Positions 7,163-64,000 of a stretch of 64,000 bases of DNA are shown here, piece after piece. The first letter of the stretch is position 1; each line of letters begins with the position of its first letter. Both the position numbers and the translations under genes were made by a program. Under the pieces are notes generated by a model that had not been told where the DNA came from, ran no database searches, and was given only the letters and a program-made list of their open reading frames with translations. The DNA is from Pseudomonadales bacterium (lineage in GTDB: Bacteria > Patescibacteriota > Microgenomatia > UBA1400 > PJMF01): positions 11,550-75,549 of the forward strand of contig JACKFY010000002.1 in the NCBI GenBank assembly GCA_020632235.1, read 5' to 3'.

Positions 7163-7278
7163 GAACAAGTATTAGCACGCACTTAATGACGAAACCCTTT
7201 TGCCCCGCCCTACTGGGTGTTCCCGCCTGAAACAGCTATGCTGAAAGTATTGCGGGTATTGTAGAGCGACAAAGAAGC

Positions 7279-10940: not shown

Positions 10941-12866
10941 ATGGTAAACGCCGTTGGTGGCACACCGCCCACCACCCCACCACCCACCCCGCCCTCGTCA
11001 AGTACTGGCGAAGATGTGGCGACCAACAATCAGCCATCGACGGACATCTCCAGCTCCGACACATCGAAGAGCGATGCGACAACAAGCAACATGCCTCAAC
11101 CGCAGGCTACTCCTCCTCTAGCGGAAACACCCACCCAACAACCAGTTCCTTCCCCCATACCCACAGTGGCAGCCCCTCTTCCCGCTATGCCACCACAACC
11201 TGGTAGTCAGCTGCCAATAAAAACCCTTCCCGCCGTACCACAAGCTACCGTTAGCCAACAACTAGGAACTAAAAAATCTCAGCCACAAGCTAACCCAACT
11301 CTGGCGAAAGCAACTGCTCCTCCTCCCAAAGAAAAAAAGAGTAAAAAATGGATACTTGCAGGTGCGTTTGCTGCTCTCATTCTCTTGATTGGCGGGATTG
11401 GTGGGTTTTTCCTGATGCAACAAAACCAGGACTTGAGAAACCAGGCAGAGACTATTCCTACTCCAACTCCAAAAATAGCAGTTGTGGGCAGCTCATGTAC
11501 AAAACGAGCATACAAAAGCACTGGTCCTGACAGCAACACTCCCACAAGCACCTCTGTCACCCAGTTTGAACAAGATGAAGCCATTATTTTTGAAATTGAT
11601 GTCACCCAGACACAAGGGCCTGTTCCCCTGATTATTGAAGACGACTACTCTCAATTTTTGGGTGCAGGATGGGATATTGACTCAGTTATGGTCAATGGCT
11701 CTGACACCTGCCAGCCTGACGCGCAGTTTAATGCTAGTAACCCTGGAAAGTACCGCTGTACCTGGCTCATGGCTTCTCCAGGAGCAACACTACCGCTTGT
11801 TATGAGGCTAGAGCCAACGGGTAATCAACTCCAGTCTCTTTCTACTGGCTCAGCACAAAAGCTGACCAACACCGTCAGGCTCATTCCGTGTGAATCATGT
11901 GGTACTGGTGGTATGGAACAGACGGGAGTAGGTGAGCAACCTACTCAAAGTGAAGGGGTGTGTTCAGCACAGATTGAGATAACTACCCCAACAGAGCCAA
12001 CACTCAGCTGTAACAGCGCCTGTACTCCAGGAGCGGTCACTGGCTCTCGCACCGATATGTGCGCCCAGCAACTTGGCGGAGGGTACTCTTGCGTGCAAGT
12101 ACTTGATAAACCAGAAGATCCTAACGAACCAACTCATCGTTGCCGACTCACCAACAACCCAACTGATGAGCAGTGCAAAGAGATAATCGTCATTAATCCA
12201 CCATCACCCAAACCAGCACCGCCCGCATGTAACAGCCTCTGTACTCCTAGTGAAGATCCAGAAAAAGACGAGTGCACGCTTAATCTTGGCTCACAGTATT
12301 TGTGTCTTGATGCTACAGGAAGCTCGACTAGTGAAATACTCAGTGAATATCGCTGTCGACTCAAAGCAAACCCCACAAATGAACAATGTGTTGACCCAAA
12401 TAGAAAAATGACCTGTAACAGCACCTGCACGCTCTCTCTTACCAATGATGAAGTAGATGAGTGCGAACAAGATTTGGGCAGTGAGTATGTCTGTGCAAAT
12501 GTTTCAAGCTCGACTGAAAAAATACTAACCCGTTGCCGACTCAAAGCAAACACGGGTGATGTTTCTTGCAAACAACAAACGGGGCCAACTGCGACTCCTT
12601 CCAGCGCGCCTTCTGCCAACCCCTCGGCAACTCCACAGACAAGCCCAGCTGTGAGTAGTACGCCGTCAGCTTCTCCAGATACCTCATCAAGCCAGAGCCC
12701 GAGTCCAACCACCGGTATTACCGGTACACAGCCATCACCTACTCCGTCAACACAACCCGTGTTACCGCAAGAGTTGCCACAGACAGGTGCATTTGACTCA
12801 TCAGTACTCCTTAAAGTAGGAATGGTGATAGTCACGCTAGGAGCAGCAATTTTGCTACTACTATAA
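10941..12866 (+). CDS. cell-surface protein: Pro/Thr-rich N-terminus, signal-anchor TM, four Cys-rich repeat modules, C-terminal LPQTG sortase sorting signal
   Basis: C-terminus LPQELPQTGAFDSSVLLKVGMVIVTLGAAILLLL (LPxTG motif, hydrophobic segment, end). Internal repeats of the form CNSxCTP...C...Y.C...YRCRLKANPT.EQC. The start may be an internal Met. Confidence 0.75.
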   Translation: MVNAVGGTPPTTPPPTPPSSSTGEDVATNNQPSTDISSSDTSKSDATTSNMPQPQATPPLAETPTQQPVPSPIPTVAAPLPAMPPQPGSQLPIKTLPAVPQATVSQQLGTKKSQPQANPTLAKATAPPPKEKKSKKWILAGAFAALILLIGGIGGFFLMQQNQDLRNQAETIPTPTPKIAVVGSSCTKRAYKSTGPDSNTPTSTSVTQFEQDEAIIFEIDVTQTQGPVPLIIEDDYSQFLGAGWDIDSVMVNGSDTCQPDAQFNASNPGKYRCTWLMASPGATLPLVMRLEPTGNQLQSLSTGSAQKLTNTVRLIPCESCGTGGMEQTGVGEQPTQSEGVCSAQIEITTPTEPTLSCNSACTPGAVTGSRTDMCAQQLGGGYSCVQVLDKPEDPNEPTHRCRLTNNPTDEQCKEIIVINPPSPKPAPPACNSLCTPSEDPEKDECTLNLGSQYLCLDATGSSTSEILSEYRCRLKANPTNEQCVDPNRKMTCNSTCTLSLTNDEVDECEQDLGSEYVCANVSSSTEKILTRCRLKANTGDVSCKQQTGPTATPSSAPSANPSATPQTSPAVSSTPSASPDTSSSQSPSPTTGITGTQPSPTPSTQPVLPQELPQTGAFDSSVLLKVGMVIVTLGAAILLLL

Positions 12867-12931: not shown

Positions 12932-14608
12932 ATGAACGTACAACAAACAAATACTAGTAAACCTCAACCTCCTTTGTACGGAGACGCAAGTGGTCCTACT
13001 GTCCAAACAGAAAAAGTGGTCAAAAACAGCAAAAAACCTCCTTCAAAGAAAAAAGTACTACAGCTTATTGTTGGATTTGTGTTCTTTATGCTCCTAGTAG
13101 GTGGCTCTTCAGTGGGGCTCTACTTGGCACAACAACAACAGGATGTCAGAAACCAAGCTGCAGCAGATTTGTGTGCCAATATCACCAATAATGTCATTGG
13201 CACTATCAGCAAACCAATCATAGAAAATACAGGCAGAGCTCTGGCAACTGTTCAAAACACCTCTACAGATTGTACCCACGAACTGTCTTTGATGGCCTTT
13301 GAAGTATATGATGACATGCAAGACCCCAACTGGCTCAACACTCAAGTTCTATTTGATAGTAGTACTGCAACTATTGCTCCAGGGGAAACGCTTATTTTAG
13401 ATGTTCGGCTTCCCTCTTGTAACTATCAGATTGACCTAGCAGAAGGAAAGCCGCTCGTACCACCCGATTACAGATCTTCATCCCTGCACTTGTTTGACTT
13501 TGCATTTGGCGGAGGTGCACTATGTGGCGCCCCATCTACTCCTACTCCATCGCCCCAAGTATCGTCTGCACCACTCACTTGTAACAGTGTGTGTCAGCAG
13601 GCAGACAAAGACCAATGTACAGCAAGCATGGGGCCAGAATACTCATGTGTCATGACTGACGGCTCTCGCACAGGACGATGCAGAAGAACCAGCAATCCAA
13701 GTAGTGAAAAATGTGAAGCGCCTACTATTGTCAGTCCCTCTCCCTCTTCTACCACCCCACAATGTAACTCCACCTGTACTCCAGAAAGTGCTAATGTTAA
13801 AGATACATGCGTGCTCAGTATGGGCTCAGCATATGAGTGTACTGTTATCACTAACGCAAATCTTGAAATAAAAGATGAGTATAGATGTAGATTGAAGACA
13901 AACCCAACTAGCACTACGTGTCAAGCTCCTGCCTCGAATGAACCGATTGTCTGCAACAGTGTGTGTGATCCTCTAGCAGATAAATGTGGCGAGGCTGTAG
14001 GAGAAGGACATGCGTGCATCAACACCGCTACCGGCACTAATCGTGCTCAGTATCGCTGTCGAAGAGAAACCAACCCAACCAGCAGCACTTGTTCTCTACC
14101 TACTAGTGTCTCTCCGAGTCCAAGCGTAAGCCCTTCGGTGAGTCCAAGTATCTCTCCTTCTCCTAGCCCTACACCTACCTATACCTGCAACAGTACCTGT
14201 ACGGGTGACAGTCAGTGTCACAGCGCTAATGCAAGCTACGTCTGCTACAAAGAAGGTAGCAACACTACGGGAGTCTGTAGAATGGGTAACAACCCAAGTA
14301 ACACAAGTTGTCAGGCAGCCCAAGGTACCTATGCGTGTAACTCTACTTGCTCTGCAGATGCACAGTGTCAAACAATAGGTAGTGGCTACATCTGTCATGA
14401 GGGTGCATGTAGGATGAGTGCCTATCCAACCCAAACCAATTGTCAGGCACCGGTCGTAGCCCAGCAGCCTGTCTATCAGACACCGACTCCTGCCCAACCA
14501 GTCCTTCCTGAAGAACTACCCCAGACTGGCGCCTTTGACTTCTCACTGGTAGCAAAGATTGGTGTGGCTACCCTTGCACTGGGTGCTGCGCTACTACTTC
14601 TACTGTAA
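12932..14608 (+). CDS. paralogous cell-surface protein with ~6 Cys-rich repeat modules and a C-terminal LPQTG sorting signal
   Basis: N-terminus KKKVLQLIVGFVFFMLLVGG...QDVRNQA mirrors the upstream gene. C-terminus LPEELPQTGAFDFSLVAKIGVATLALGAALLLLL. Confidence 0.75.
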   Translation: MNVQQTNTSKPQPPLYGDASGPTVQTEKVVKNSKKPPSKKKVLQLIVGFVFFMLLVGGSSVGLYLAQQQQDVRNQAAADLCANITNNVIGTISKPIIENTGRALATVQNTSTDCTHELSLMAFEVYDDMQDPNWLNTQVLFDSSTATIAPGETLILDVRLPSCNYQIDLAEGKPLVPPDYRSSSLHLFDFAFGGGALCGAPSTPTPSPQVSSAPLTCNSVCQQADKDQCTASMGPEYSCVMTDGSRTGRCRRTSNPSSEKCEAPTIVSPSPSSTTPQCNSTCTPESANVKDTCVLSMGSAYECTVITNANLEIKDEYRCRLKTNPTSTTCQAPASNEPIVCNSVCDPLADKCGEAVGEGHACINTATGTNRAQYRCRRETNPTSSTCSLPTSVSPSPSVSPSVSPSISPSPSPTPTYTCNSTCTGDSQCHSANASYVCYKEGSNTTGVCRMGNNPSNTSCQAAQGTYACNSTCSADAQCQTIGSGYICHEGACRMSAYPTQTNCQAPVVAQQPVYQTPTPAQPVLPEELPQTGAFDFSLVAKIGVATLALGAALLLLL

Positions 14609-14611
14609 AGA

Positions 14612-14770
14612 CTATCCCCTCCTTCACCATAGAATGGTGAAGGAGGGGTGTTTTAGCACTTCCTTTGTAAGGGAAGACATCCCGACTTTAGTCGCGATAG
14701 AAGGGTTTACCTCTGTTATTTCGATCCGCCGGCTGGCGGATACAAATCTGCATGGAACAGAGATCTCTCC
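14612..14770. repeat. composite hairpin-repeat element (family member)
   Basis: Modules shared with other copies: CACCATAGAATGGTG + GGGGTGTTTT; CCTTTGTAAGGG; GAAGGGTTTACC; reverse-complemented CCGCCAGCCGGCGGATCGAAA motif. Confidence 0.5.
14613..14650 (+). terminator. intrinsic terminator-like hairpin (CCCCTCCTTCACC-ATAGAA-TGGTGAAGGAGGGG, then TGTTTT); also the first module of a composite repeat element
   Basis: 13-bp GC-rich stem, followed by a U-rich tract, 5 nt after the stop of the preceding gene. Confidence 0.55.
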
Positions 14771-14824
14771 TGTCCACGTTATTCCAGTTGAAATGGCAAG
14801 AAAAAAGGACGGCAAAAGCACTAT

Positions 14825-14950
14825 GCGTCTACTAGGACTTACCGATGCTGCGATCGGCACAGGCTTCTCGCCCTACTAGCCGCGTGTGCGTCTACTAGGA
14901 CTTACCGATGCTGCGATCGGCACAGGCTTCTCGCCCTACTAGCCGCGTGT
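14825..14950. repeat. two tandem 63-bp direct repeats, each beginning with the last 15 nt of the adjacent tRNA (GCGTCTACTAGGACT) and containing the palindrome CCGATGCTGCGATCGG
   Basis: Exact duplication at 14825-14887 and 14888-14950. A third copy of the 15-nt start is the 3' end of tRNA-Ile itself (14951 onward). Confidence 0.85.
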
Positions 14951-15023
14951 GCGTCTACTAGGACTCGAACCTAGAACCCCCAAGGTATAAGCTTGGTGCT
15001 CTCACCAATTGAGCTATAGACGC
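14950..15023 (-). tRNA. tRNA-Ile, anticodon UAU (reads AUA)
   Basis: Reverse complement: GCGTCTA-TA-GCTC-AATTGGTGA-GAGC-A-CCAAG-CTTATAC-CTTGG-GGGTT-CTAGG-TTCGAGT-CCTAG-TAGACGC-A. Canonical cloverleaf with anticodon loop C-U-UAU-A-C. Confidence 0.75.
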
Positions 15024-23336: not shown

Positions 23337-23349
23337 ACACGTAGTCTAC

Positions 23350-23630
23350 CATCCCTCACCATAAAGTGATGGGCGAAGGGGTGTTTTCATCCCCTCTTTT
23401 CAAGAGGGGCAGGCTGAAAGCATGGGGTGTTTTAGCCCTCCCTTTCATAAGGGGAGACACATGGCGAAGCCAGGTAGAGGGGTTTTCCCTCGTCATTTCG
23501 ACTGGAACAAAGTGGAGTGGAGAAATCCCCAATGCAGACTTCTCGGATATGCTCGAAGTGACAGACTGAGTTGTGGCCGAAATGACAGATTGGCATGGAG
23601 ATCAAATGGTGAGGAGGGGTATTTTGTTTT
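23350..23630. repeat. composite hairpin-repeat element (family member)
   Basis: Modules: CACCATAAAGTGATGG + GGGGTGTTTT; CCCCTCTTTTCAAGAGGGGC + AGGCTGAAAGCATGGGGTGTTTT; CCTTTCATAAGGGG; CGTCATTTCGACTGG...GGAGAAATCCCC. Confidence 0.6.
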
Positions 23631-23680
23631 ATTCTTTTTAGCTACAATGTCGCATAAAAAATAAAAACCAGATTCAATAA

Positions 23681-33084: not shown

Positions 33085-33509
33085 TGCAGTACTTACTCGA
33101 TACCAATATCATTATCAAACACTTACGCCGACAGCAAAAGGTTGATCCAAGATGGTTAGAAAAAGAATGCGGTGTATCATTATTTACTTATGCTGAACTA
33201 CTATATGGCTGTTATAGATCCGCTAACCCTCTCCATGAACAAAGAATCCTTGATGAAACTCTCGAGTTGCTCGATATTTCTGTTGTCGATATAGGGCTTA
33301 AAGAAATTGAGTTGTACATACAAATCAAAGTTAATTTAGAAAAAAAAGGTCAAAAACCAGAAGACTTTGATCTCCTCATTGCTGCAACTGCGCTGGGTCA
33401 AGACCTCACGCTCATCACCAACAACGCCAAGCATTTCAAGAGGATTTCAGGCTTGAGAGTGCTTGCCACAGAGCCCGAGGCACTTCCTCTACCAGATCAC
33501 TCGCATTAA
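33078..33509 (+). CDS. vapC: PIN-domain toxin (VapC-like)
   Basis: Starts MVMQYLLDTNIII, has acidic residues at PIN positions, and overlaps the antitoxin stop by 7 nt. Confidence 0.75.
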   Translation: MVMQYLLDTNIIIKHLRRQQKVDPRWLEKECGVSLFTYAELLYGCYRSANPLHEQRILDETLELLDISVVDIGLKEIELYIQIKVNLEKKGQKPEDFDLLIAATALGQDLTLITNNAKHFKRISGLRVLATEPEALPLPDHSH

Positions 33510-34416
33510 AGTACGGGCCCTTCTGGGCGTACAAATTGTCCCCTGCTTTTTTATTGATGTATGAGCCTACCACCGCTGCCGTCTTGGGATGATGCTTGCA
33601 GTACAAGGCTGCGATCAGCCCAGCCAAAACATCACCTGTGCCACCTTTGGTCATGCCAGAGTTGCCACCAGTTATATAGACTGACCCGTCCATTTGAGCG
33701 ACATAGTCGATGACGCCCTTTATCACTACCGTAGCTCCCTGCAGGTCACCCGACATTCCTGTCGCAGCGCTCAAGTTTACAGGAAAAAATGTGTCAGAGG
33801 TCGAAGTAATATCATGACCAAAATCTTTCCACTCCCACGTTTCAGGAAGTTTGGTAAAAAGAGTACGCACCTCCCCCTCATGCGGTGTCACAATGCAGTT
33901 TTTATGTAGTAGCTCTGGGTTCACCATCTGAAGCGCCCCAGCATCAACCACCCACTTTTTGTCTGGGTACTTTTCAAGAAGGTAGTTGACGACAAACTCG
34001 GTGTCTTCATTCCACTTTTCTGTAGTTTTACTCCCTTTCGTAAGGGGATCCCCCGATGTTTCATCGGGGGAGGAATGTTTTGGGGGGTTTCTGGTCATCC
34101 CCGGCCCAATCAAGACGCAATCTGCCTCGTCAATATAGCTCTCGATGTCTTGTCTGGGCACCACAATACCGTTCCAAAATGCACCTTTTGCCTCTTCAAC
34201 CAGTCTATTATTGCTGGGCACTGATGCATAAAACACCATATCGACAAACTTGCTGGCAACATCAAGACTCCACTTGCTGGCCGCATGAAACAGCTCTGAC
34301 CCCCCAATGATCATCAGTTTGCCGTTTTGGCCTTTGTGTGAGTCTGGCCTAGGCAGTTTTATTCTCTTTAAGTAGCTCTGTATCTGTTTGTCCATAGTGT
34401 CCTTGTGGTTTAACAT
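33436..34416 (-). CDS. ADP-dependent NAD(P)H-hydrate dehydratase (YjeF C-terminal / Nnr-like carbohydrate-kinase fold)
   Basis: GKLMIIGGS, DCVLIGPGMTR, VVDAGAL, TPHEGE, GGNSGMTKGGTGDVLAGLIAAL. Confidence 0.75.
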   Translation of the reverse strand: MLNHKDTMDKQIQSYLKRIKLPRPDSHKGQNGKLMIIGGSELFHAASKWSLDVASKFVDMVFYASVPSNNRLVEEAKGAFWNGIVVPRQDIESYIDEADCVLIGPGMTRNPPKHSSPDETSGDPLTKGSKTTEKWNEDTEFVVNYLLEKYPDKKWVVDAGALQMVNPELLHKNCIVTPHEGEVRTLFTKLPETWEWKDFGHDITSTSDTFFPVNLSAATGMSGDLQGATVVIKGVIDYVAQMDGSVYITGGNSGMTKGGTGDVLAGLIAALYCKHHPKTAAVVGSYINKKAGDNLYAQKGPYFNASDLVEEVPRALWQALSSLKSS

Positions 34417-34424
34417 CCTTTCCC

Positions 34425-34515
34425 TTGTAAGGGAAAAACTCTGGCGGAGCCAGAGAAAAGGGTTTTCCCTCTGTCACTCTGCCGTGCCACGGTAGAGTCT
34501 TCTCACTCCCTGAAA
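34425..34515. repeat. composite hairpin-repeat element (family member)
   Basis: CCCTTGTAAGGG + AAAAACT-CTGGCGGAGCCAGAG-AAAAGGGTTTTCCCT + CTGTCACTCTGCCGTGCCACGG; parallels 45.7 kb and 51.5 kb copies. Confidence 0.55.
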
Positions 34516-34528
34516 AACTATATCAAGC

Positions 34529-39074: not shown

Positions 39075-39400
39075 TGAACCCCTTGCCTGCAGTTGTCACT
39101 CTGCCTTGCCCGAAATGCTATGCACAGTCGTTGCAGGCGGGGAGCGAAGCATGGCGCATGGACTCACTCCCTTTCATAAGGGGAGACATCAAGCGACAGC
39201 ATGATAGAAGGGTTTTTCTTTGTCATTTCGACTCCCGACACGTCGGGACTGGAGAAATCCCCAACACAGACTTCTCTCCGTCAGCTGGCGGATCAAAGTA
39301 GTAGATGGGTTTAGCTCTCCCCTTGCAAGAGACTTCATCAAGACTTGTAAACGCGGATACCTCCATTCCAGTCGGCATGACAAGTCTTGCTTCGTCACTC
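39075..39400. repeat. composite hairpin-repeat element (family member) in the divergent promoter region between the SpoIID-like gene and the pilin array
   Basis: GTCACTCTGCC; CCCTTTCATAAGGGGAG; GTCATTTCGACTCCCGACACGTCGGGACTGGAGAAATCCCC; CTTCTCTCCGTCAGCTGGCGGATCAAAG; AACGCGGATACC...GGCATGACAAG. Confidence 0.6.
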
Positions 39401-39458
39401 TCAACTAAAACAAACGAAGGGGTTTGCTCAATAGCTCCATCTGGAGTAAAATAACAGG

Positions 39459-40610
39459 GTGAAGAAAATACTACTACTGTGCTTTGCTGTATTGCAGATA
39501 GGCTCGTTTGTGATGCCGAGTCAAACCAAGGCGCAAGACATGTGTGGCGGCATTAGTGTTGAACCACCAATAGCATCACCACACCTAGATGGAGAGGTAC
39601 TCATCGTTAAAATAGCTGGATTTACAAATGGAGCATACAGAGAGTTTGCTATTACGGAAGACAGATTTGCCGCAATCACTCTTGAATCAGCAAGCGGAAC
39701 TGCTGTTGATGGTAAAATCACGCTGCAGTTTTCAGGCAACGGAGTAAAAAAACTTCTTTGGGCAGCGGATAGTAGAAAAATTTCTATGAACGGAGAAGGC
39801 TCTAATGACTGTGTTGTTCCAAATAGTTATTTCGAAATAGGTGAAAGTAGCACTAGTGGAAATCATTCTTGCGACCTCAACATTACCTATACAAACGATG
39901 AAAACGACACGTTCGGAAAATGGGGGTGCATAGACACCACAAGCGATTTTAGCATTAACGCTACTAACATTACAGACCCCCTGGGTGTGTTTTCGGGAAA
40001 TGAGGCAACATTACACTATGACAGTAACGCAGCTACCCTTGTTGATCTTGATGGTAACGGCAATTTTTTAAATCCTAAAATACTTCAATCAAATGAAACT
40101 AATTATGGCAATAACCATAGCGTGAGATTTGCTGTTGCAATAAGTGATTTAATTATTTACCACACGGCATGCGAAGAAACAGTCGGCACAATTGTCGAAT
40201 CATGCGCCAATGCCGTCACCCCCACCTCCACCACTCCCTTCCAACTTTGCTCCCAAATCCCCAATCCTGTCCAAAGGGCTGAATGCGAAACATGCGCTAC
40301 TACAGGAGGAGGTGACCCAGAAAACCCCGGTGGCGTCTGGACAGCAGTTGGCTGCATCAGCAAAGACCCTGCCTCTATCATCCAGTCACTCATCAAGGTA
40401 GGCCTGGGCATGTCTGGCGGCGTGGTGCTACTCACTTTCCTAGCTGGCGGCTTTATGCTCACTACTTCCCAGGGTAACCCTGAGGGCGTCAACAAGGCCA
40501 AAGAAATGATGACCGCCAGCGTGGTGGGCCTGGTATTCATGCTACTATCAATTAGTATCTTACAATTTATTGGCGTAACCGTACTACGAATACCAGGGTT
40601 TGGTACATGA
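39459..40610 (+). CDS. T4SS pilin-like protein (VirB2/TrbC-type C-terminal domain) with a ~280-aa N-terminal extracellular domain
   Basis: Signal peptide. C-terminus VGLGMSGGVVLLTFLAGGFMLTTSQGNPEGVNKAKEMMTASVVGLVFMLLSISILQFI: two hydrophobic helices flanking a GxxG/K-rich loop. Confidence 0.55.
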   Translation: MKKILLLCFAVLQIGSFVMPSQTKAQDMCGGISVEPPIASPHLDGEVLIVKIAGFTNGAYREFAITEDRFAAITLESASGTAVDGKITLQFSGNGVKKLLWAADSRKISMNGEGSNDCVVPNSYFEIGESSTSGNHSCDLNITYTNDENDTFGKWGCIDTTSDFSINATNITDPLGVFSGNEATLHYDSNAATLVDLDGNGNFLNPKILQSNETNYGNNHSVRFAVAISDLIIYHTACEETVGTIVESCANAVTPTSTTPFQLCSQIPNPVQRAECETCATTGGGDPENPGGVWTAVGCISKDPASIIQSLIKVGLGMSGGVVLLTFLAGGFMLTTSQGNPEGVNKAKEMMTASVVGLVFMLLSISILQFIGVTVLRIPGFGT

Positions 40611-45679: not shown

Positions 45680-46035
45680 TGGGTTTTAGCATTCCCCTCT
45701 TTTCAAGAGGGGCTAGCTGAAAGCCAGGGGTGTTTTAGTCCTTCCCCTTGTAAGGGGAAAACTCAAGTGATAACTTGAGAAAAGGGTTTAGCCCTCCGTT
45801 TCATAAGGGGACCCGCCTGCATCAGCTGTGCTGAAAGCACTGCGGGCAGGGACATCAAGCGAAGCGTGATAGAGGGGTTTAGCGCTTCTCCCGAACTGAG
45901 TCGGGACTTTGTCATTTCAACTCCCGACCTGTCGGGATTGGAGAAATCCCACCCAGATGTCCCTGCCCGCAATGTCTGCGACATAGTCGTAGCAGGCGGG
46001 TCTACTACGCTCGAAATGACATTCTAGCTTTCGGT
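45680..46035. repeat. composite hairpin-repeat element (largest family member), immediately 5' of the giant hydrolase gene
   Basis: CCCCTCTTTTCAAGAGGGGC + TAGCTGAAAGCCAGGGGTGTTTT; CCCCTTGTAAGGGG + AAAACT-CAAGTGATAACTTGAG-AAAAGGGTTTAGCCCT; CCGTTTCATAAGGGG; GTGCTGAAAGCAC; GTCATTTCAACTCCCGACCTGTCGGGATTGGAGAAATCCC. Confidence 0.6.
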
Positions 46036-46039
46036 CCAC

Positions 46040-49000
46040 ATGACAACCAAACCAGCACAACCCACTCAGGCTTCCAGAGCCAAAGCTGGTATAATCGAGG
46101 CCATGTTGGCCCTACGATCTCCCACTCGGTTTTTGTTGTCGTGCCTTTTGGCAAGCAGTCTCTTGCTGCTCTCGGTAAGTGGAGTTTTGGCAGGTAAAGC
46201 GGGCATTAACATTGGCGACCACTTTGGTGAAGTAGACCAAGCAGCACAAATCACCCGTGATGGTGGTTGGATAGTCGTCATGGCACAGCCGGGCGACTGC
46301 ATGGATCTCTCGCAAATGATGGCAGATCACCCCAACACCAACTTTGTTATCCGCGGACACCACCCTCACACCGACGTAATGTCTCCTGAACACGCAAAAG
46401 CATGGGCCTACACCCTAGCCAACATGAATACGGGCGGAAGAAAAGTATATTTTTACCCTGTGAACGAGCCATTTACCCGGGGGGCGCAGGAGGGGTTTTC
46501 CAACGACCCTGCCACCACCGCTCAGATGGTGAACGCGTATGTTGACACTCTTCTCTCTACTGCTCCGGGACTAGACCAAAAGGTGGTATTTCTCTCGCCC
46601 ATGATAAACAGAACACACCCAAACTATGAAAGCAATGTGGACTTGTTGGGCGGAGCAGGTTTTTACAATAAATTTTCTGGTATATCAATGAATTTATATG
46701 ATTTTCAAGGCTGCGGAGGGCCGTTTTGCCACCCCAACAAACATCTTAACTCAGGAAGATTTTTAGAAGACAAAGCGCTCGAAGGCATTGATGCTGGCAA
46801 GCAGGTCTACGCTGTCGAATCTGGCGTGGTAAATGGAAACGTCGTCTACATAGACACCCAACTGCGAACGTACTACGAGGCTGGTTATGGCAGCCCTGGG
46901 CCATTTCTTGACTCCAGGCTGGCAATGACCGCCACATTTTCCTACAACCCCCACGCCAGCGACTGGAGCATCTACGGTACACAGACCGCTAGTTTTTTTC
47001 AGGGGTTGGGTGGTGGAACTGCGCCAATTCCAGAAACCTTTGACGAGGAAGCGTGGTTTGCTGACAACAACATACAAGACAAAATTGACGCAGGCGAGAT
47101 CATCCAGTGTGACGAGTGCGGCTTGAGCCCTTCCACCCCCGACGGGGCTGGCTACTGTGCGGCTGTGGGCAACTATAGTACGACGATCTTCCCCGAGTAC
47201 GAATACGAAAACACCGAGTACTACATCCATCCTATTTGCGAAAATGAAGAGGTGTGCCGAAGTGGTAGTTATGAAGAGGCAACCGTGGAGTATAAAAACA
47301 GCCTCATAAACCAAGGGTATGAGGCCTACTGCGCCAACGAAGAAGTGCAAGTACTCGGCACTACGGGGCAAAACTGGGATCTCTACCTATCACTCATTGC
47401 CTCTGGACAACAACCCGGGAGTCAGCAAACAACACAAAGCGAGTACGTGCTTGACGCCACCAACATGAAGGTGCCGCTATTCAGAGATGTATCGGGTAAA
47501 CGCTGGCGCATGACATCGCTGGAAGAGTTTTTTGGATTTAGAGATATTTACACCAACAAAGACACTGAAAGCCTCATCAACAGCGCTATGATTGAAAAAC
47601 TAACTTCCCAAGAGCAGCGCTGTCAGCTGTCGGTGCAGATCTTGCGGGAGACCAAGCAATTTTGCCAGCGAGAAGAAAATGCAGATACAGCCTCGTGCTA
47701 TCTCAATACTCAGATACCAGACCCTGCCGGCTCGGTAATTGGCAACATGAAGAGACTCGACGCCCTCTCTCTTTTTGAAGGACAAGGCACAACATGCAGT
47801 GAGCTTGTCCAGCGTCAAGACACAGACCCGCTAAAAGCCGCCATTATGAATAATCCATTGTATCTTGAAAGGCTCTATAGACTGGGGTTCTTGGTAACCT
47901 CAGTACGGCAGGTTGCGCCAAATAGCTACACAGGCAATCCCGATACTTTTTTTAGTTTTTTTTCGAATAACTATAGTTCTGGGGTGGGGCTCGCCTACGC
48001 CTCTAGCATGAACGATGTTTCGATCACTGCATTTAAAATCCCTGATGTTGGGCTGGGTCATGACTACGAAAAACTCCAAAACGAAGATGGTTCTACAGCG
48101 GATTTGCAAGACACCAGCATATATACCGACCCATTGTACAACACCAAGCTATCGGTGCTCAGCACCAAGCAACAGCAGTACGCAGCCACCATGAGTGCAG
48201 AGTATAAAGATATACTCAGGCACAACTCATACACCGAGTACGAACGTCCAGATGGCTCTGTCGTTACTGGTCCTCGTCCGTTTGGCGGTAATGACCTCAT
48301 CAACTGCCCTTTCACTCCTGGCTGTGGCGTACCTCATTTTGACCCCAGCACGCCAGTTGACCCGCTTTTTCGTGCAATTATAGACTTGGTCAATACCAAC
48401 AAAGGCATTTACGGCACAGAAGACAAAGATGAAGACGGCAAGCCCGATGTTATTCCTGGCAGGACCTACACAGTAGAAGACATAGCTGATAGAGACAAAG
48501 GTTTGTATCTAAACTGTAAGCCAGAAATAGTCGAGATCACCCCCGAGGGTGTGACGCGCATTTCAGATCCATCGACCATTGATGAGTCTGACCCCTATAG
48601 AAACCTAGAAAATGACCTGGGCGAAACAAACGAACACATCGCGTTGTCTCTGGCAAACAGACTCAGAAACGGTGACACGAGCACTCCTATTTCGAGAACA
48701 AACTTTAGCCCATTTACTTCTATTATCAAATCAACTAATACAGAAAAAAATAGGTACGCTATGATCAACACCTATGTGGTGTATCCGGGAGAGTACGAGG
48801 CAAACGAGATTGCAAATGCTATTCGCAGCCCCTTTGTGCCCTTTGAAGACGCAGAAGAGATTGACATAAACAGACTCAAAGGTTGCGACCCCTACGAAAC
48901 AGACTGTCCGCCACTGCTACAACCAGACGGATCGGTCAAACCAAAAATCCAGAGAGGATTTGAGCTCATTGGAGGTATTTTTCAGTCAAGCTGGGGAAGT

Positions 49001-51867: not shown

Positions 51868-52290
51868 TGCCTCCGTTGTATTGAAGTGGGTTCTCCCCGA
51901 ACCAGGAACAGAAAAAGCTATTACGCTTTTTGACCTTCACGCCAGTAAAAAAATCGAGCTATACGCACCAATCCTGCTATTATACGAGGTGACAAACACC
52001 ATCGCCCTAAAAAAAGACCTCAGCTCTAAGCAGGTAAAAGATGCGCTCGCCATAATATTAGATGAAAGAATTAACCTTGTGTCTATGGAGATATATATGC
52101 AAAAAATAGCCCAAGCTGTTCGCGGCTAGTCCATCTCTGCCTATGACGCCAGCTATGTGGTGCTGGCTCAGCAGTACGACTGTCCTCTCGTCACCGCCGA
52201 CACAAAGCTCATTTCGGCAGTGGGTAAACCCTTTGTCCAAACTCTTGAAGCGCTAGACATCCCCTCTTTTTCCCTCACCATAAAGTGGTG
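51851..52290 (+). pseudogene. PIN-domain toxin (VapC-like) interrupted by a frameshift/stop near 52125
   Basis: N-terminal frame MALIVDASVVLKW...LLLYEVTN ends at 52129. The C-terminal PIN segment SISAYDASYVVLAQQYDCPLVTADTKLIS continues in another frame. Confidence 0.65.
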
Positions 52291-52365
52291 AGGGGGGGGT
52301 TTCATATCCCCTCTTTCAAAGAGGGGCGGGCTAAAAGCCGGGGGTGTTTTTCCCCCCAGATACTA
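52270..52365. repeat. composite hairpin-repeat element (family member), immediately 5' of the VirB6-like gene
   Basis: CACCATAAAGTGGTGAGGGGGGGGTTTCAT + CCCCTCTTTCAAAGAGGGGC + GGGCTAAAAGCCGGGGGTGTTTT, near-identical to the 23.4-kb and 45.7-kb modules. Confidence 0.6.
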
Positions 52366-62624: not shown

Positions 62625-64000
62625 CATGCCCACCAACTACACCCAGTCAACCACCCAAGAGTATCTTGATATTTATGACATCACCAACAACCTCGTGGTG
62701 ATGAAAGATGGCTCTACTAGCATGATCTTGACGGTAGATGCCATGAACTTTGGCCTCTTGGCAGAAGAGGAGCAAGACGCAGTGATGTATGCCTACGCAG
62801 GGCTCCTTAACTCACTCAATTACCCTATTCAAGTCATTGTAAAGTCACAGACAAAAGACGTAACCTCATACCTTCAACGTCTCAAAGAACAAGAAATAAA
62901 AGCGAGCTCTCGACTAAACCAAGAGAGAATTGGGCGATACCGAGAGTTTGTGAGCAACCTTATTCGCGAGCGAAATGTGCTTGATAAAAAATTCTATGTT
63001 GTTATTCCTGCCACCGCCATTGAGTTGGGTATTGTGCCCGCAAGCAGTGTGCTGCCTGGCAAACAATCATTTAACGCCGAGAGTGTAGACAAGCCTGTTC
63101 TACTTGAAAAAGCCCAAACAGTACTTGAACCAAAACGAGATCACATTGTTTCTCAGTTTGCCCGGATTGGACTCTACTCTCGGCAGTTAGAAACACAAGA
63201 GATTATCCAGTTGTTTTATGTCAGCTACAACCCAGAAGCGGCAGAAGGTCAACAACTAGGCGAAACACAAAGCTATGCCTCACCACTAGTGAGCACCTTT
63301 TCAGAAGAGGTGGCTGTGCCAGAAGTAGTCCCAGTGTCTGAAGAACCTGTTGGTGAGGTGCCTATAAGTCAGTCTCAGCCAGAGGCTGATCCTGCTTTGG
63401 CGCAAGTGAGTGGTGCGACAGTAAACCCAGATTCTCTCCGTCAGCTGACGGATCGACATGACGAAGCGGAGATCGACATGACAAGTAACAATCAACCCCA
63501 GCCAGAGGCTAATCCGCCTTTGGCGGAAATAACCACTTTAGTAGACAAAAGTACTAATACTCAACCAGAGGTGATGGGTGAAATGAGTACTTCACCACAG
63601 CAAAGTGACGAAAAAATCCCCCCACCCACCATCCCTAAAGCCATTTTCTCTGGTCCTACGTCAGCTCCATCAACTGATGAAGTTCAAACACAGATTTATT
63701 CAGATCTGGCACAAACGAATAACATAATAGTAAACCCAGATTCTCTCCCTCAGCCGATGGATCGAAATGACAAAGTGGAGATCGACACGACAGATGACAA
63801 CCAGACAATAGCCAACAAACATCAGTCGGAGGAGGAGGCCCTAGAAGCCACAAATCAGCCGGAACAAAGCCCTCAGAACGCCCAGGAGGCCCTAAATTCT
63901 CTCGCGGGACAAGTTGTTTCAGCTCCTCCTCAACCACAAATTAATCCTGCTTTAGTGCAAGCACCCAACTCCCAAACGCTCTCTCGTACCTCAGCTGTCT
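62625..64000 (+). CDS. VirB4-like T4SS ATPase N-terminal region (CagE/TrbE/VirB4-type domain) with a repeat-containing low-complexity insertion; ORF runs off the window
   Basis: YDITNNLVVMKDGSTSMILTVDAMNFGLLAEEEQDAVMYAYAGLLNSLNYPIQVIVKSQ matches the VirB4 N-terminal pattern (compare A. tumefaciens VirB4 HIVLLEDGSIMSIARIDGVAFELEE...). The frame stays open for 1376 nt to the window end. Not in the ORF table because it has no stop. Confidence 0.6.

Follow-up and report, generated by a model that had tools for sequence, protein, structure and literature searches.

A palindromic module related to REP sequences is translated in three copies in the predicted-disordered tail of a type IV secretion system protein of Candidatus Woesebacteria

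How does a hairpin-forming repeat of the intergenic spacers come to be read as protein? The question is raised by a 64,000-nucleotide stretch of contig JACKFY010000002.1 (assembly GCA_020632235.1, positions 11,550 to 75,549 of the forward strand), here called the window, which belongs to a metagenome-assembled genome (MAG) of Candidatus Woesebacteria, a lineage of the Microgenomates within the candidate phyla radiation (CPR). At the end of the window lies a TraC/TrsD-like gene of the type IV secretion system (T4SS), and the C-terminal tail that it encodes contains in-frame relatives of a short palindromic module found in the spacers. A first-pass annotation, made from the letters alone, had offered two explanations, either that the hairpin family sits in the gene and is translated there as a low-complexity linker, or that the spacer copies derive from a coding repeat. 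The first is supported by the dispersal of the family in non-coding DNA, its absence from all 119 homologous tails, the mainly non-synonymous divergence of the copies, the predicted disorder of the tail and a second in-frame case in a dehydratase gene. We propose, with a probability of about 70%, that one element of the repetitive extragenic palindromic (REP) type was inserted in a permissive disordered tail and that intragenic duplication or conversion and neutral drift followed. The features of the gene are as follows.

62626..64000, plus strand: T4SS TraC/TrsD-like gene, starting at the ATG at 62626 and truncated by the window end, with 458 codons visible.
62626..63291, plus strand: conserved, folded N-terminal domain, residues 1-222 (predicted local distance difference test, pLDDT, 70-97; 60-76% identity in many Microgenomates homologues).
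63292..64000, plus strand: hypervariable C-terminal tail, predicted to be disordered and rich in P/Q/T/E/S/A, as judged from pLDDT, stops per frame and unalignable homologues.
63417..63494, plus strand: copy 1, a REP-type module with a second bare terminus GAGATCGACATGACA, translated TVNPDSLRQLTDRHDEAEIDMTSNN.
63427..63463, plus strand: the canonical module in copy 1, CAGATTC-TC-inner palindrome-TC-GACATGAC, with the tag CGTC on the opposite strand; it aligns with modules of 26 other genomes.
63437..63452, no strand: the inner palindrome TCCGTCAGCTGACGGA, perfect over 16 nt, inside a 20-mer core at 63435-63454.
63453..63482, minus strand: two family termini GTCATGTCGA in copy 1, from the terminus count.
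63726..63803, plus strand: copy 2, with a decayed inner palindrome (TCCCTCAGCCGATGGA) and the consensus terminus GAAATGACA kept, translated IVNPDSLPQPMDRNDKVEIDTTDDN.
63762..63771, minus strand: the family terminus GTCATTTCGA, exact, in copy 2, from the terminus count.

Both visible copies are read in the frame of the ATG at 62626, as VNPDSLRQLTDRHDEAEIDMT from 63421 and as IVNPDSLPQPMDRNDKVEIDTT from 63727. The reading frame, which the first pass had described as open for more than 1.3 kb, is without a stop across all 1375 nt of the gene in the window, and within the tail the gene frame has no stops and the other two frames have 18 and 16. The segments 63421-63495 and 63730-63804 are identical at 63 of 75 nt and are offset by 309 nt, that is, by 103 codons. 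The edges of the repeated unit are sharp (approximately 63417-63494 against 63726-63803), and a weaker similarity continues for about 45 nt farther upstream. The module had been reported as embedded in frame, twice; the frame is as reported and the count is not, as the full protein contains three copies, with DSL at residues 269, 372 and 495. The third lies past the window end and is known as protein alone. Copies 1 and 3 are identical across 28 residues, with diverged upstream flanks in which approximately 8 of 18 residues are alike, and copy 2 is the divergent one. Ahead of each of the three stands an L(A/V)Q-x5-(V/A)N motif, with weak similarity among the copies. The repeat unit has a single stop-free frame among the three forward frames, which is the frame of the gene. 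Five of the six arginines in the 316-residue tail lie within the three segments, which are compositional outliers.

A second, independent assembly, GCA_020429115.1, has copy 1 as well, on a contig (L001) that is colinear with the window and has 12 mismatches in 9,978 nt. Its presence there, and in part in the Logan contig L002, excludes an assembly artefact for this copy. The assemblies of the same organism break in the tail, L001 at window position 63719 and L002 at 63459. The end of L002 would fit a branch in a k=31 graph if a second copy were identical from 63429 on, which agrees with the change from P to L before DSL in copy 3.

The DNA of the copies has close relatives in the spacers. The 23-mer core TTCTCTCCGTCAGCTG(A/G)CGGATC, in the form TTCTCTCCGTCAGCTGRCGGATC, occurs exactly at 39272-39294 in a spacer and at 63432-63454 in the tail, and with 3 mismatches at 63741-63763; 100 dinucleotide shuffles contained no match. 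When the spacer cluster 39140-39460 was compared with the window by BLAST, 32 nt of the tail matched at 90.6% (E = 9e-6), and among the matches of six spacer clusters treated in this way the T4SS tail was the sole strong one in a coding region. The segments that had been noticed at 63424 and 63727, together with their core shared with a spacer, are thus borne out at a level above chance, and the shuffles exclude a chance resemblance. The reverse-complemented relative reported at 14722 was likewise recovered, at approximately 14711-14750, where 40 nt align with copy 2 at 77.5% identity (E = 0.03). The spacer element given as 39270-39300 exists, with its extent corrected to 39267-39298. At up to one mismatch, the window has 14 sites of the family terminus GTCATTTCGA, where 3.1 +/- 1.7 would be expected, and three of these sites, at 63453, 63473 and 63762 on the minus strand, are in the tail. 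The spacers of the window hold about seven clusters made of the same parts, head-to-head elements included (14600-14790, 23340-23640, 34410-34520, 39100-39460, 45680-46045, 52255-52365 and approximately 7170-7260), of which the following members are best described.

39267..39298, plus strand: spacer relative CAGACTTC-TC-TCCGTCAGCTGGCGGA-TC-AAAG, the right-hand half of a longer element starting with TGTCATTTCGA at about 39221.
14711..14750, minus strand: reverse-complemented spacer relative GATTTGTATCCGCCAGCCGGCGGATCGAAATAAC, with a DNA fold at z = -3.5.
23340..23640, no strand: spacer mosaic of hairpin modules of the same family, with three family termini.
45680..46045, no strand: spacer mosaic with a complete element, TGTCATTTCAA ... 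TCGAAATGACA.

Could the gene be the source, as the second of the two original explanations had it? An ancestral coding repeat would account for a module that is in frame three times and for the identity of copies 1 and 3 at the protein level, and its spacer copies would then be derived from the gene or alike by chance. We consider this barely credible. No chance matches are expected for the 23-mer core, and the same 20-mer and termini are mostly non-coding repeats in many phyla, which argues against derivation of the spacer copies from the coding repeat. The comparison with homologues, which the first pass had recommended, points the same way. The tails cannot be aligned, and the motifs LRQLT, PSADG and (A/G/D/S)RND(K/G/R/E) occur in 0 of 119 homologous tails, so that the segments are better regarded as insertions than as ancestral; a search with the tail only matched the same species alone. 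Furthermore, the divergence between copies 1 and 2 is mostly non-synonymous. Their differences fall at codon positions 1, 2 and 3 in the numbers 4, 6 and 2; 9 codons are changed non-synonymously and 2 synonymously, and there are 10 transitions and 2 transversions, a pattern that, in so far as the sequences speak to it, gives no sign of selection on the peptide.

To follow the wider distribution of the module, the species-representative genomes of GTDB were scanned for exact copies of the 20-mer TCTCCGTCAGCTGRCGGATC, with at least 118 loci as the outcome. Among the matches listed, 104 are of the perfect-palindrome (A) variant, hosted by Bacteroidota (Draconibacterium, Maribellus, Vicingus, Crocinitomicaceae, Seramator), Acidobacteriota/Terriglobia, Verrucomicrobiota, Neomarinimicrobiota, Balneolaceae and several Patescibacteria, often on multiple contigs per genome. 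Among these same listed A-variant matches, 9 of 104 are in open reading frames (ORFs) of at least 600 nt, the median longest spanning ORF being about 200-220 nt, and a right flank of the (A/G)ATGAC type follows the 20-mer in 48. Matches to the G variant in high-GC genomes were rejected as elements, being ordinary coding sequence. Among unique foreign modules, 38 of 93 end in ATGAC. The canonical flanks, GAT(T/C)NN ... NN(A/G)ATGACA, are complementary; Watson-Crick pairs are formed at the positions directly adjoining the 20-mer (+/-1) in 61 of 93 modules against a shuffle maximum of 47, and in 28 canonical-flank modules the outer stem shows 17 double-sided changes against 5.5 +/- 2.6, a value that none of 500 shuffles reached.

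Full foreign elements are about 100 nt long and have the structure TGTCATTCCG-hairpin A-GGAATCTCGC-loop-GCGAGATTCC-TC-hairpin B-TC-GGAATGACA, in which hairpins A and B are interchangeable and may be a GCGAAGC mini-hairpin, CCCGCGAAGCGGG or the 16-nt palindrome. The unit in the T4SS gene is equivalent to the right-hand half of one full element (AAACCCAGATTC-TC-palindrome-TC-GA(A/C)ATGAC) with the bare terminus GAGATCGACATGACA added. The full elements have inverted termini, TGTCATTCCG..CGGAATGACA, a trait that miniature inverted-repeat transposable elements combine with a target-site duplication. No Rfam family was matched at gathering thresholds across the window, nor at E values up to 10 by the spacer element and one foreign element. 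The exact 20-mer was absent from IMG/VR viral contigs, the canonical 40-nt module was unmatched in PLSDB plasmids, and a literature search by sequence strings retrieved unrelated primers only. In some genomes the 20-mer lies inside longer, lineage-specific multi-copy repeats with other flanks, namely in Vicingus (contigs L046, L050, L062, L074, L092, L110 and L113), in Bacteroidales (L005, L027, L028, L043 and L044) and in Seramator-type repeats (L012 and L036 from S. thermalis, L077 from a Bacteroidetes MAG).

To which known repeats is the module related? Previous work has described a superfamily of CGTC/TGTC-tagged REPs that takes in dRS3 of Neisseria and RPE-4 and RPE-6 of Rickettsia (Di Nocera, De Gregorio & Rocco 2013, PMC3733652). 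Many of these REPs are in frame inside genes, where they encode peptides such as DSRLRGND, VIPAKAGI and VIPGLDPGI, and a dedicated transposase for them has not been reported (PMC3733652). The module resembles them in several respects. It has the unpaired terminal tag that in the superfamily is CGTC, TGTC or CCTC, and which on the reverse complement of the module reads ..CTTCGTCATGTC.. in copy 1 and ..CTTTGTCATTTC.. in copy 2, that is, CGTC and TGTC, respectively. Its stem opens with an A-T pair, the outer stems being ATTTC/GAAAT, ATTCC/GGAAT and ATTGC/GCAAT, and pair 11-40 is AU in 17 of the 28 modules and pair 12-39 is UA in 25. As with the CGTC REPs, there are head-to-head pairs, mosaic spacer clusters and in-frame members within genes, and the peptides are alike: DSRLRGND and VIPAKAGI (PMC3733652) may be compared with DSLRQLTDRND in the tail and VIPSE...VEMT in a relative (L125). 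The differences concern architecture and host. Instead of a stem of 8-9 bp and a loop of 4-5 nt, the module has an outer stem of 4-5 bp, a 2x2 TC/TC internal loop, an inner stem of 6 bp and an AGCT loop; instead of a 3-nt CCA tail, the stem is followed by CTC or CTG, as in GGAATCTCGC of foreign elements and GAATCTGG of the window; and the CPR is a host phylum from which such REPs are unreported, with an inner 20-mer that is identical across phyla. We therefore file the module as a variant related to the CGTC REP superfamily and outside its four families, because it has the tag and the A-T-first stem and departs in stem and loop size and in the CCA tail.

Other systems offer partial parallels. 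The Neisseria intergenic mosaic elements (NIMEs) are built from dRS3, which ties them to the CGTC-1 repeats (PMC3733652). As in NIMEs, the spacers of the window are mosaics of short repeats bounded by palindromes of the ATTCC..GGAAT type; unlike NIMEs, they belong to another organism, and translated NIME copies are not known. The consensus of dRS3 is ATTCCC-N8-GGGAAT. The Rickettsia palindromic element RPE-1 is reportedly a selfish palindromic DNA of approximately 100-150 bp, confined to Rickettsia and translated in frame at permissive sites in genes. The module shares with it the in-frame insertion with preservation of the host ORF and is set apart by description, being a unit of about 40-80 nt in a disordered tail that is amplified within the gene. 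REPIN/RAYT systems and palindromic mini-elements derived from IS200/IS605 resemble the module in their dispersed hairpin doublets, probably processed as single-stranded DNA, but the module lacks the GTAG tag. The small dispersed repeats of cyanobacteria are said to be about 20-27 nt long, nested in other repeats and sometimes in genes; their sequences and their hosts are different ones.

On these grounds we propose the following series of events. A REP-type element would have been inserted in the tail, between the conserved N-terminal domain and the conserved LPPLPEI end. Its source would have been the right half of the spacer elements of about 100 nt with the structure TGTCAT..-hairpin-..-hairpin-..ATGACA and the inner hairpin TCCGTCAGCTGACGGA. 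The insertion would have survived because it hit the single stop-free forward frame and because there was no fold to disrupt, and it would have been translated as ..DSLRQLTDR(N/H)D(K/E).... Duplication or conversion, inside the tail, of a segment of about 80-120 nt with the element would then have given three in-frame copies, and the copies would have drifted neutrally, copy 2 losing its hairpin. With the global consensus as outgroup, the consensus 20-mer has survived in copy 1 and the consensus terminus GAAATGACA in copy 2, and the common ancestor of the copies must accordingly have been a canonical element. The copies look like intragenic duplicates of one insertion and not like separate insertions.

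Several points weigh against this proposal. That there was one insertion at the outset, that duplication or conversion followed, that the drift is neutral and that some activity mobilises the element are all inferred; the insertion event itself was not seen, because no empty-site allele is present in the collections searched, in which the nearest homologue is 76% identical in the N-terminal domain. JGI metagenomes likewise had no match for the last 32 nt of the window and so yielded neither strain variants nor empty sites. The module counts cover the 64-kb window, and copy 3 was read as protein. No transposase was identified (no scan was aimed at one), nor was a target-site duplication. Lastly, copies 1 and 3, whose upstream flanks have diverged, are identical across the element, and a composite inserted repeatedly would give this picture as well.

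Such a composite, a mobile unit about 80-100 nt long that consists of the module and the second terminus and entered the tail three times independently, would explain the sharp boundaries as well as the 28 identical residues beside flanks with only about 8 of 18 residues alike. The shared frame would not speak against it, being forced in any case on a unit with a single open forward frame. We nevertheless regard it as unlikely. Elsewhere in the window the 3' part of the composite, GGATCGAMATGACRAAGYGGAGATCGACAYGACA, has no further match (the search did not extend to the rest of the genome), and JGI metagenomes contained none. The weak L(A/V)Q-x5-(V/A)N motif ahead of all copies is, moreover, what a segmental duplication predicts.

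It may also be asked whether the hairpins have been retained for a function, as mRNA structure that pauses ribosomes, as RNase sites, as substrates of a recombination that drives the variation in tail length, or as an acidic peptide working in the T4SS. The inner palindrome is kept perfect in copy 1, where 6 bp pair into a stem around a 4-nt loop, and by inference in copy 3; the tail length of the family is highly variable, and other assemblies break within the tail. Retention for a function is very unlikely in our judgement. The hairpin of copy 2 has been lost through uncompensated changes on both sides, in which a G-C pair became C and T, and no fold is left. Even in copy 1 the fold of the whole 75 nt is insignificant (z = -1.4), and the motif is in none of the homologues (119 tails).

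Insertion in a permissive site, as proposed for the tail, is consistent with a second gene of the window, in which a related insert is found.

34020..34095, minus strand: second in-frame case, an insert of 26 residues after GPGMTR with two perfect hairpins, in the NAD(P)H-hydrate dehydratase gene at 33436-34416.

The DNA of this insert folds at z = -4.76 and has a counterpart in the spacer module CTCCCTTTCATAAGGGGA. Three orthologues, P0123, P0164 and P0179, are without the insert, and others hold different inserts at the site (alignment A1); the position after GPGMTR is a hot spot for inserts across the Microgenomates. In the dehydratase of a relative (P0122, contig L125, 400-470) a canonical REP dimer, TGTCATTCCGAG...GAGATGACA, is in frame at the same site (VIPSEIEESKIDLSTTVEMT) and is translated VIPSEIEES...TVEMT. 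The codons for GPGMT, GG(G/A)ATGAC, mimic a REP terminus (window 34085-34110; L125 376-393), and this mimicry might be a reason for the build-up of inserts just downstream, which we offer as an idea only. Further cases come from one Gottesmanbacteria contig, in which the 20-mer encodes DPSPSADGSG in an HtrA-like protease (L011, 549-1751, minus strand) and in an aminotransferase (L030, 5397-6656, minus strand); in both proteins the peptide falls exactly at gaps in the alignment to PDB homologues. In a Patescibacteria MAG, an 808-residue protein resembling arginyl-tRNA synthetase (L018, 2565-4991, minus strand) has EDPSADGEK encoded by the 20-mer, and a long low-complexity insert near its N-terminus.

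What kind of protein carries the repeats? The complete product, P0241 (MCB9801847.1), was recovered as a cluster member; it has 538 residues, reads ...NLDSLRQLTDRHDEAEIDMTSNNQPQPEANLPLVETPSLPPLPEIT beyond the window end and has LPPLPEIT at its C-terminus. The NCBI records of P0241 and of two further proteins, P0121 and P0041, give 'Pseudomonadales bacterium' for what are CPR (Woesebacteria-like) MAG proteins, an apparent taxonomic mislabel. In the AlphaFold model, residues 213-458 are without secondary structure, with a pLDDT of about 37-45. The homologues are 258-673 residues long and share a layout in which a conserved N-terminal domain of about 220 residues is followed by an unalignable P/T/Q/A/S-rich tail of about 30-440 residues, mostly ending in LPPLPEI. 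Their sole precomputed Pfam domain is PF26593, 'TraC-like'; against this label, a copy of Pfam scanned directly gave no match. The family references for TrsD/TraC are PF26593 and NF041427, and the NCBIfam matches are weak, with VirB4_plasma at E = 1e-5 (the VirB4 N-terminal region) and TrsD at E = 3e-5, both far under the cut-offs. A sequence search of the PDB with the N-terminal domain gave no match, and the top Foldseek matches of its model were TrwK/VirB4 chains (E = 0.036, probability 0.93).

The protein ends at residue 538 without a C-terminal P-loop ATPase domain (DUF87 / AAA_10). In a relative (contig L123) the gene order is an M23-peptidase giant protein, a protein of about 330-340 residues, a PrgI/VirB3-like protein, the TraC/TrsD-like gene, a separate VirB4-type ATPase with DUF87/AAA_10, and dnaA, and the upstream neighbours of the gene in the window match this order. 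We consider the product to be a putative TraC/TrsD-like protein whose N-terminal domain may fold like that of VirB4, and not a complete VirB4. The original description of the gene as VirB4-like is accordingly valid for the N-terminal domain alone, and the repeats are outside any ATPase. A survey of T4SSs in Patescibacteria has reported that TrsD homologues adjoin virB4 in most CPR genomes and that TrsD, a homologue of the same component class, is essential in an epibiotic Saccharibacterium (bioRxiv 10.1101/2025.01.22.634366).

That REPs are translated within genes is already known; what is new is the CPR host, the nested architecture, the amplification in a T4SS tail and a 20-mer that is identical across phyla. 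Among the papers that a full-text literature search listed, none mentions REPs and CPR together. The genomes of CPR/Patescibacteria, usually thought to be streamlined, hold REP-like palindromes that invade coding sequence, and this accounts for the odd charged peptides that a T4SS component has in its hypervariable tail and for the breaks of assemblies there. In NAD(P)H-hydrate dehydratase, the loop that follows GPGMTR is one of the sites that offer a test bed for the turning of palindromic repeats into protein, and the letter-perfect 20-mer bears on the question of what mobilises CGTC-type REPs. More tentatively, TC-TCCGTCAGCTGACGGA-TC may be a swappable 'cassette' belonging to a class of REP-like elements that spans phyla and has not been described, letter-identical across Bacteroidota, Acidobacteriota, Verrucomicrobiota, Patescibacteria and others, nested in covarying outer stems and inserted in frame in CPR housekeeping genes. 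We put this forward as a possibility that we would not yet call likely. If it were true, a conserved activity on single-stranded DNA or frequent transfer between phyla would write the same hairpin into genomes and sometimes into proteins.

A few further observations concern low-complexity sequence and RNA genes in the window. The recurrent peptide (S/P)QP(E/Q)A(N/D/T)P(P/A/T)LA(E/Q/K) was considered as a further hairpin module and rejected, as its DNA is only 65-81% alike with the peptide conserved, and 6-bp stems are expected by chance in 700 nt. This 37-nt motif (QPEA(N/D)P(P/A)LA(E/Q)) is found in the tail at 63369-63405, 63492-63528 and 63924-63960 and also at 11090-11126 and 11273-11309, the latter two sites being in the N-terminal low-complexity region of an LPQTG-anchored surface protein (10941-12866). 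A 63-nt unit in perfect tandem duplication (14824-14949) lies directly beside a tRNA-Ile gene (14949-15023, minus strand) whose anticodon, TAT (UAU), is unusual in bacteria. The 23S rRNA match at 1-1498 on the minus strand is 1498 nt long and yet covers model positions 1-1129 only, which implies about 370 nt extra, an insertion, in its 5' part; a 176-residue ORF lies opposite this match at 613-1143.

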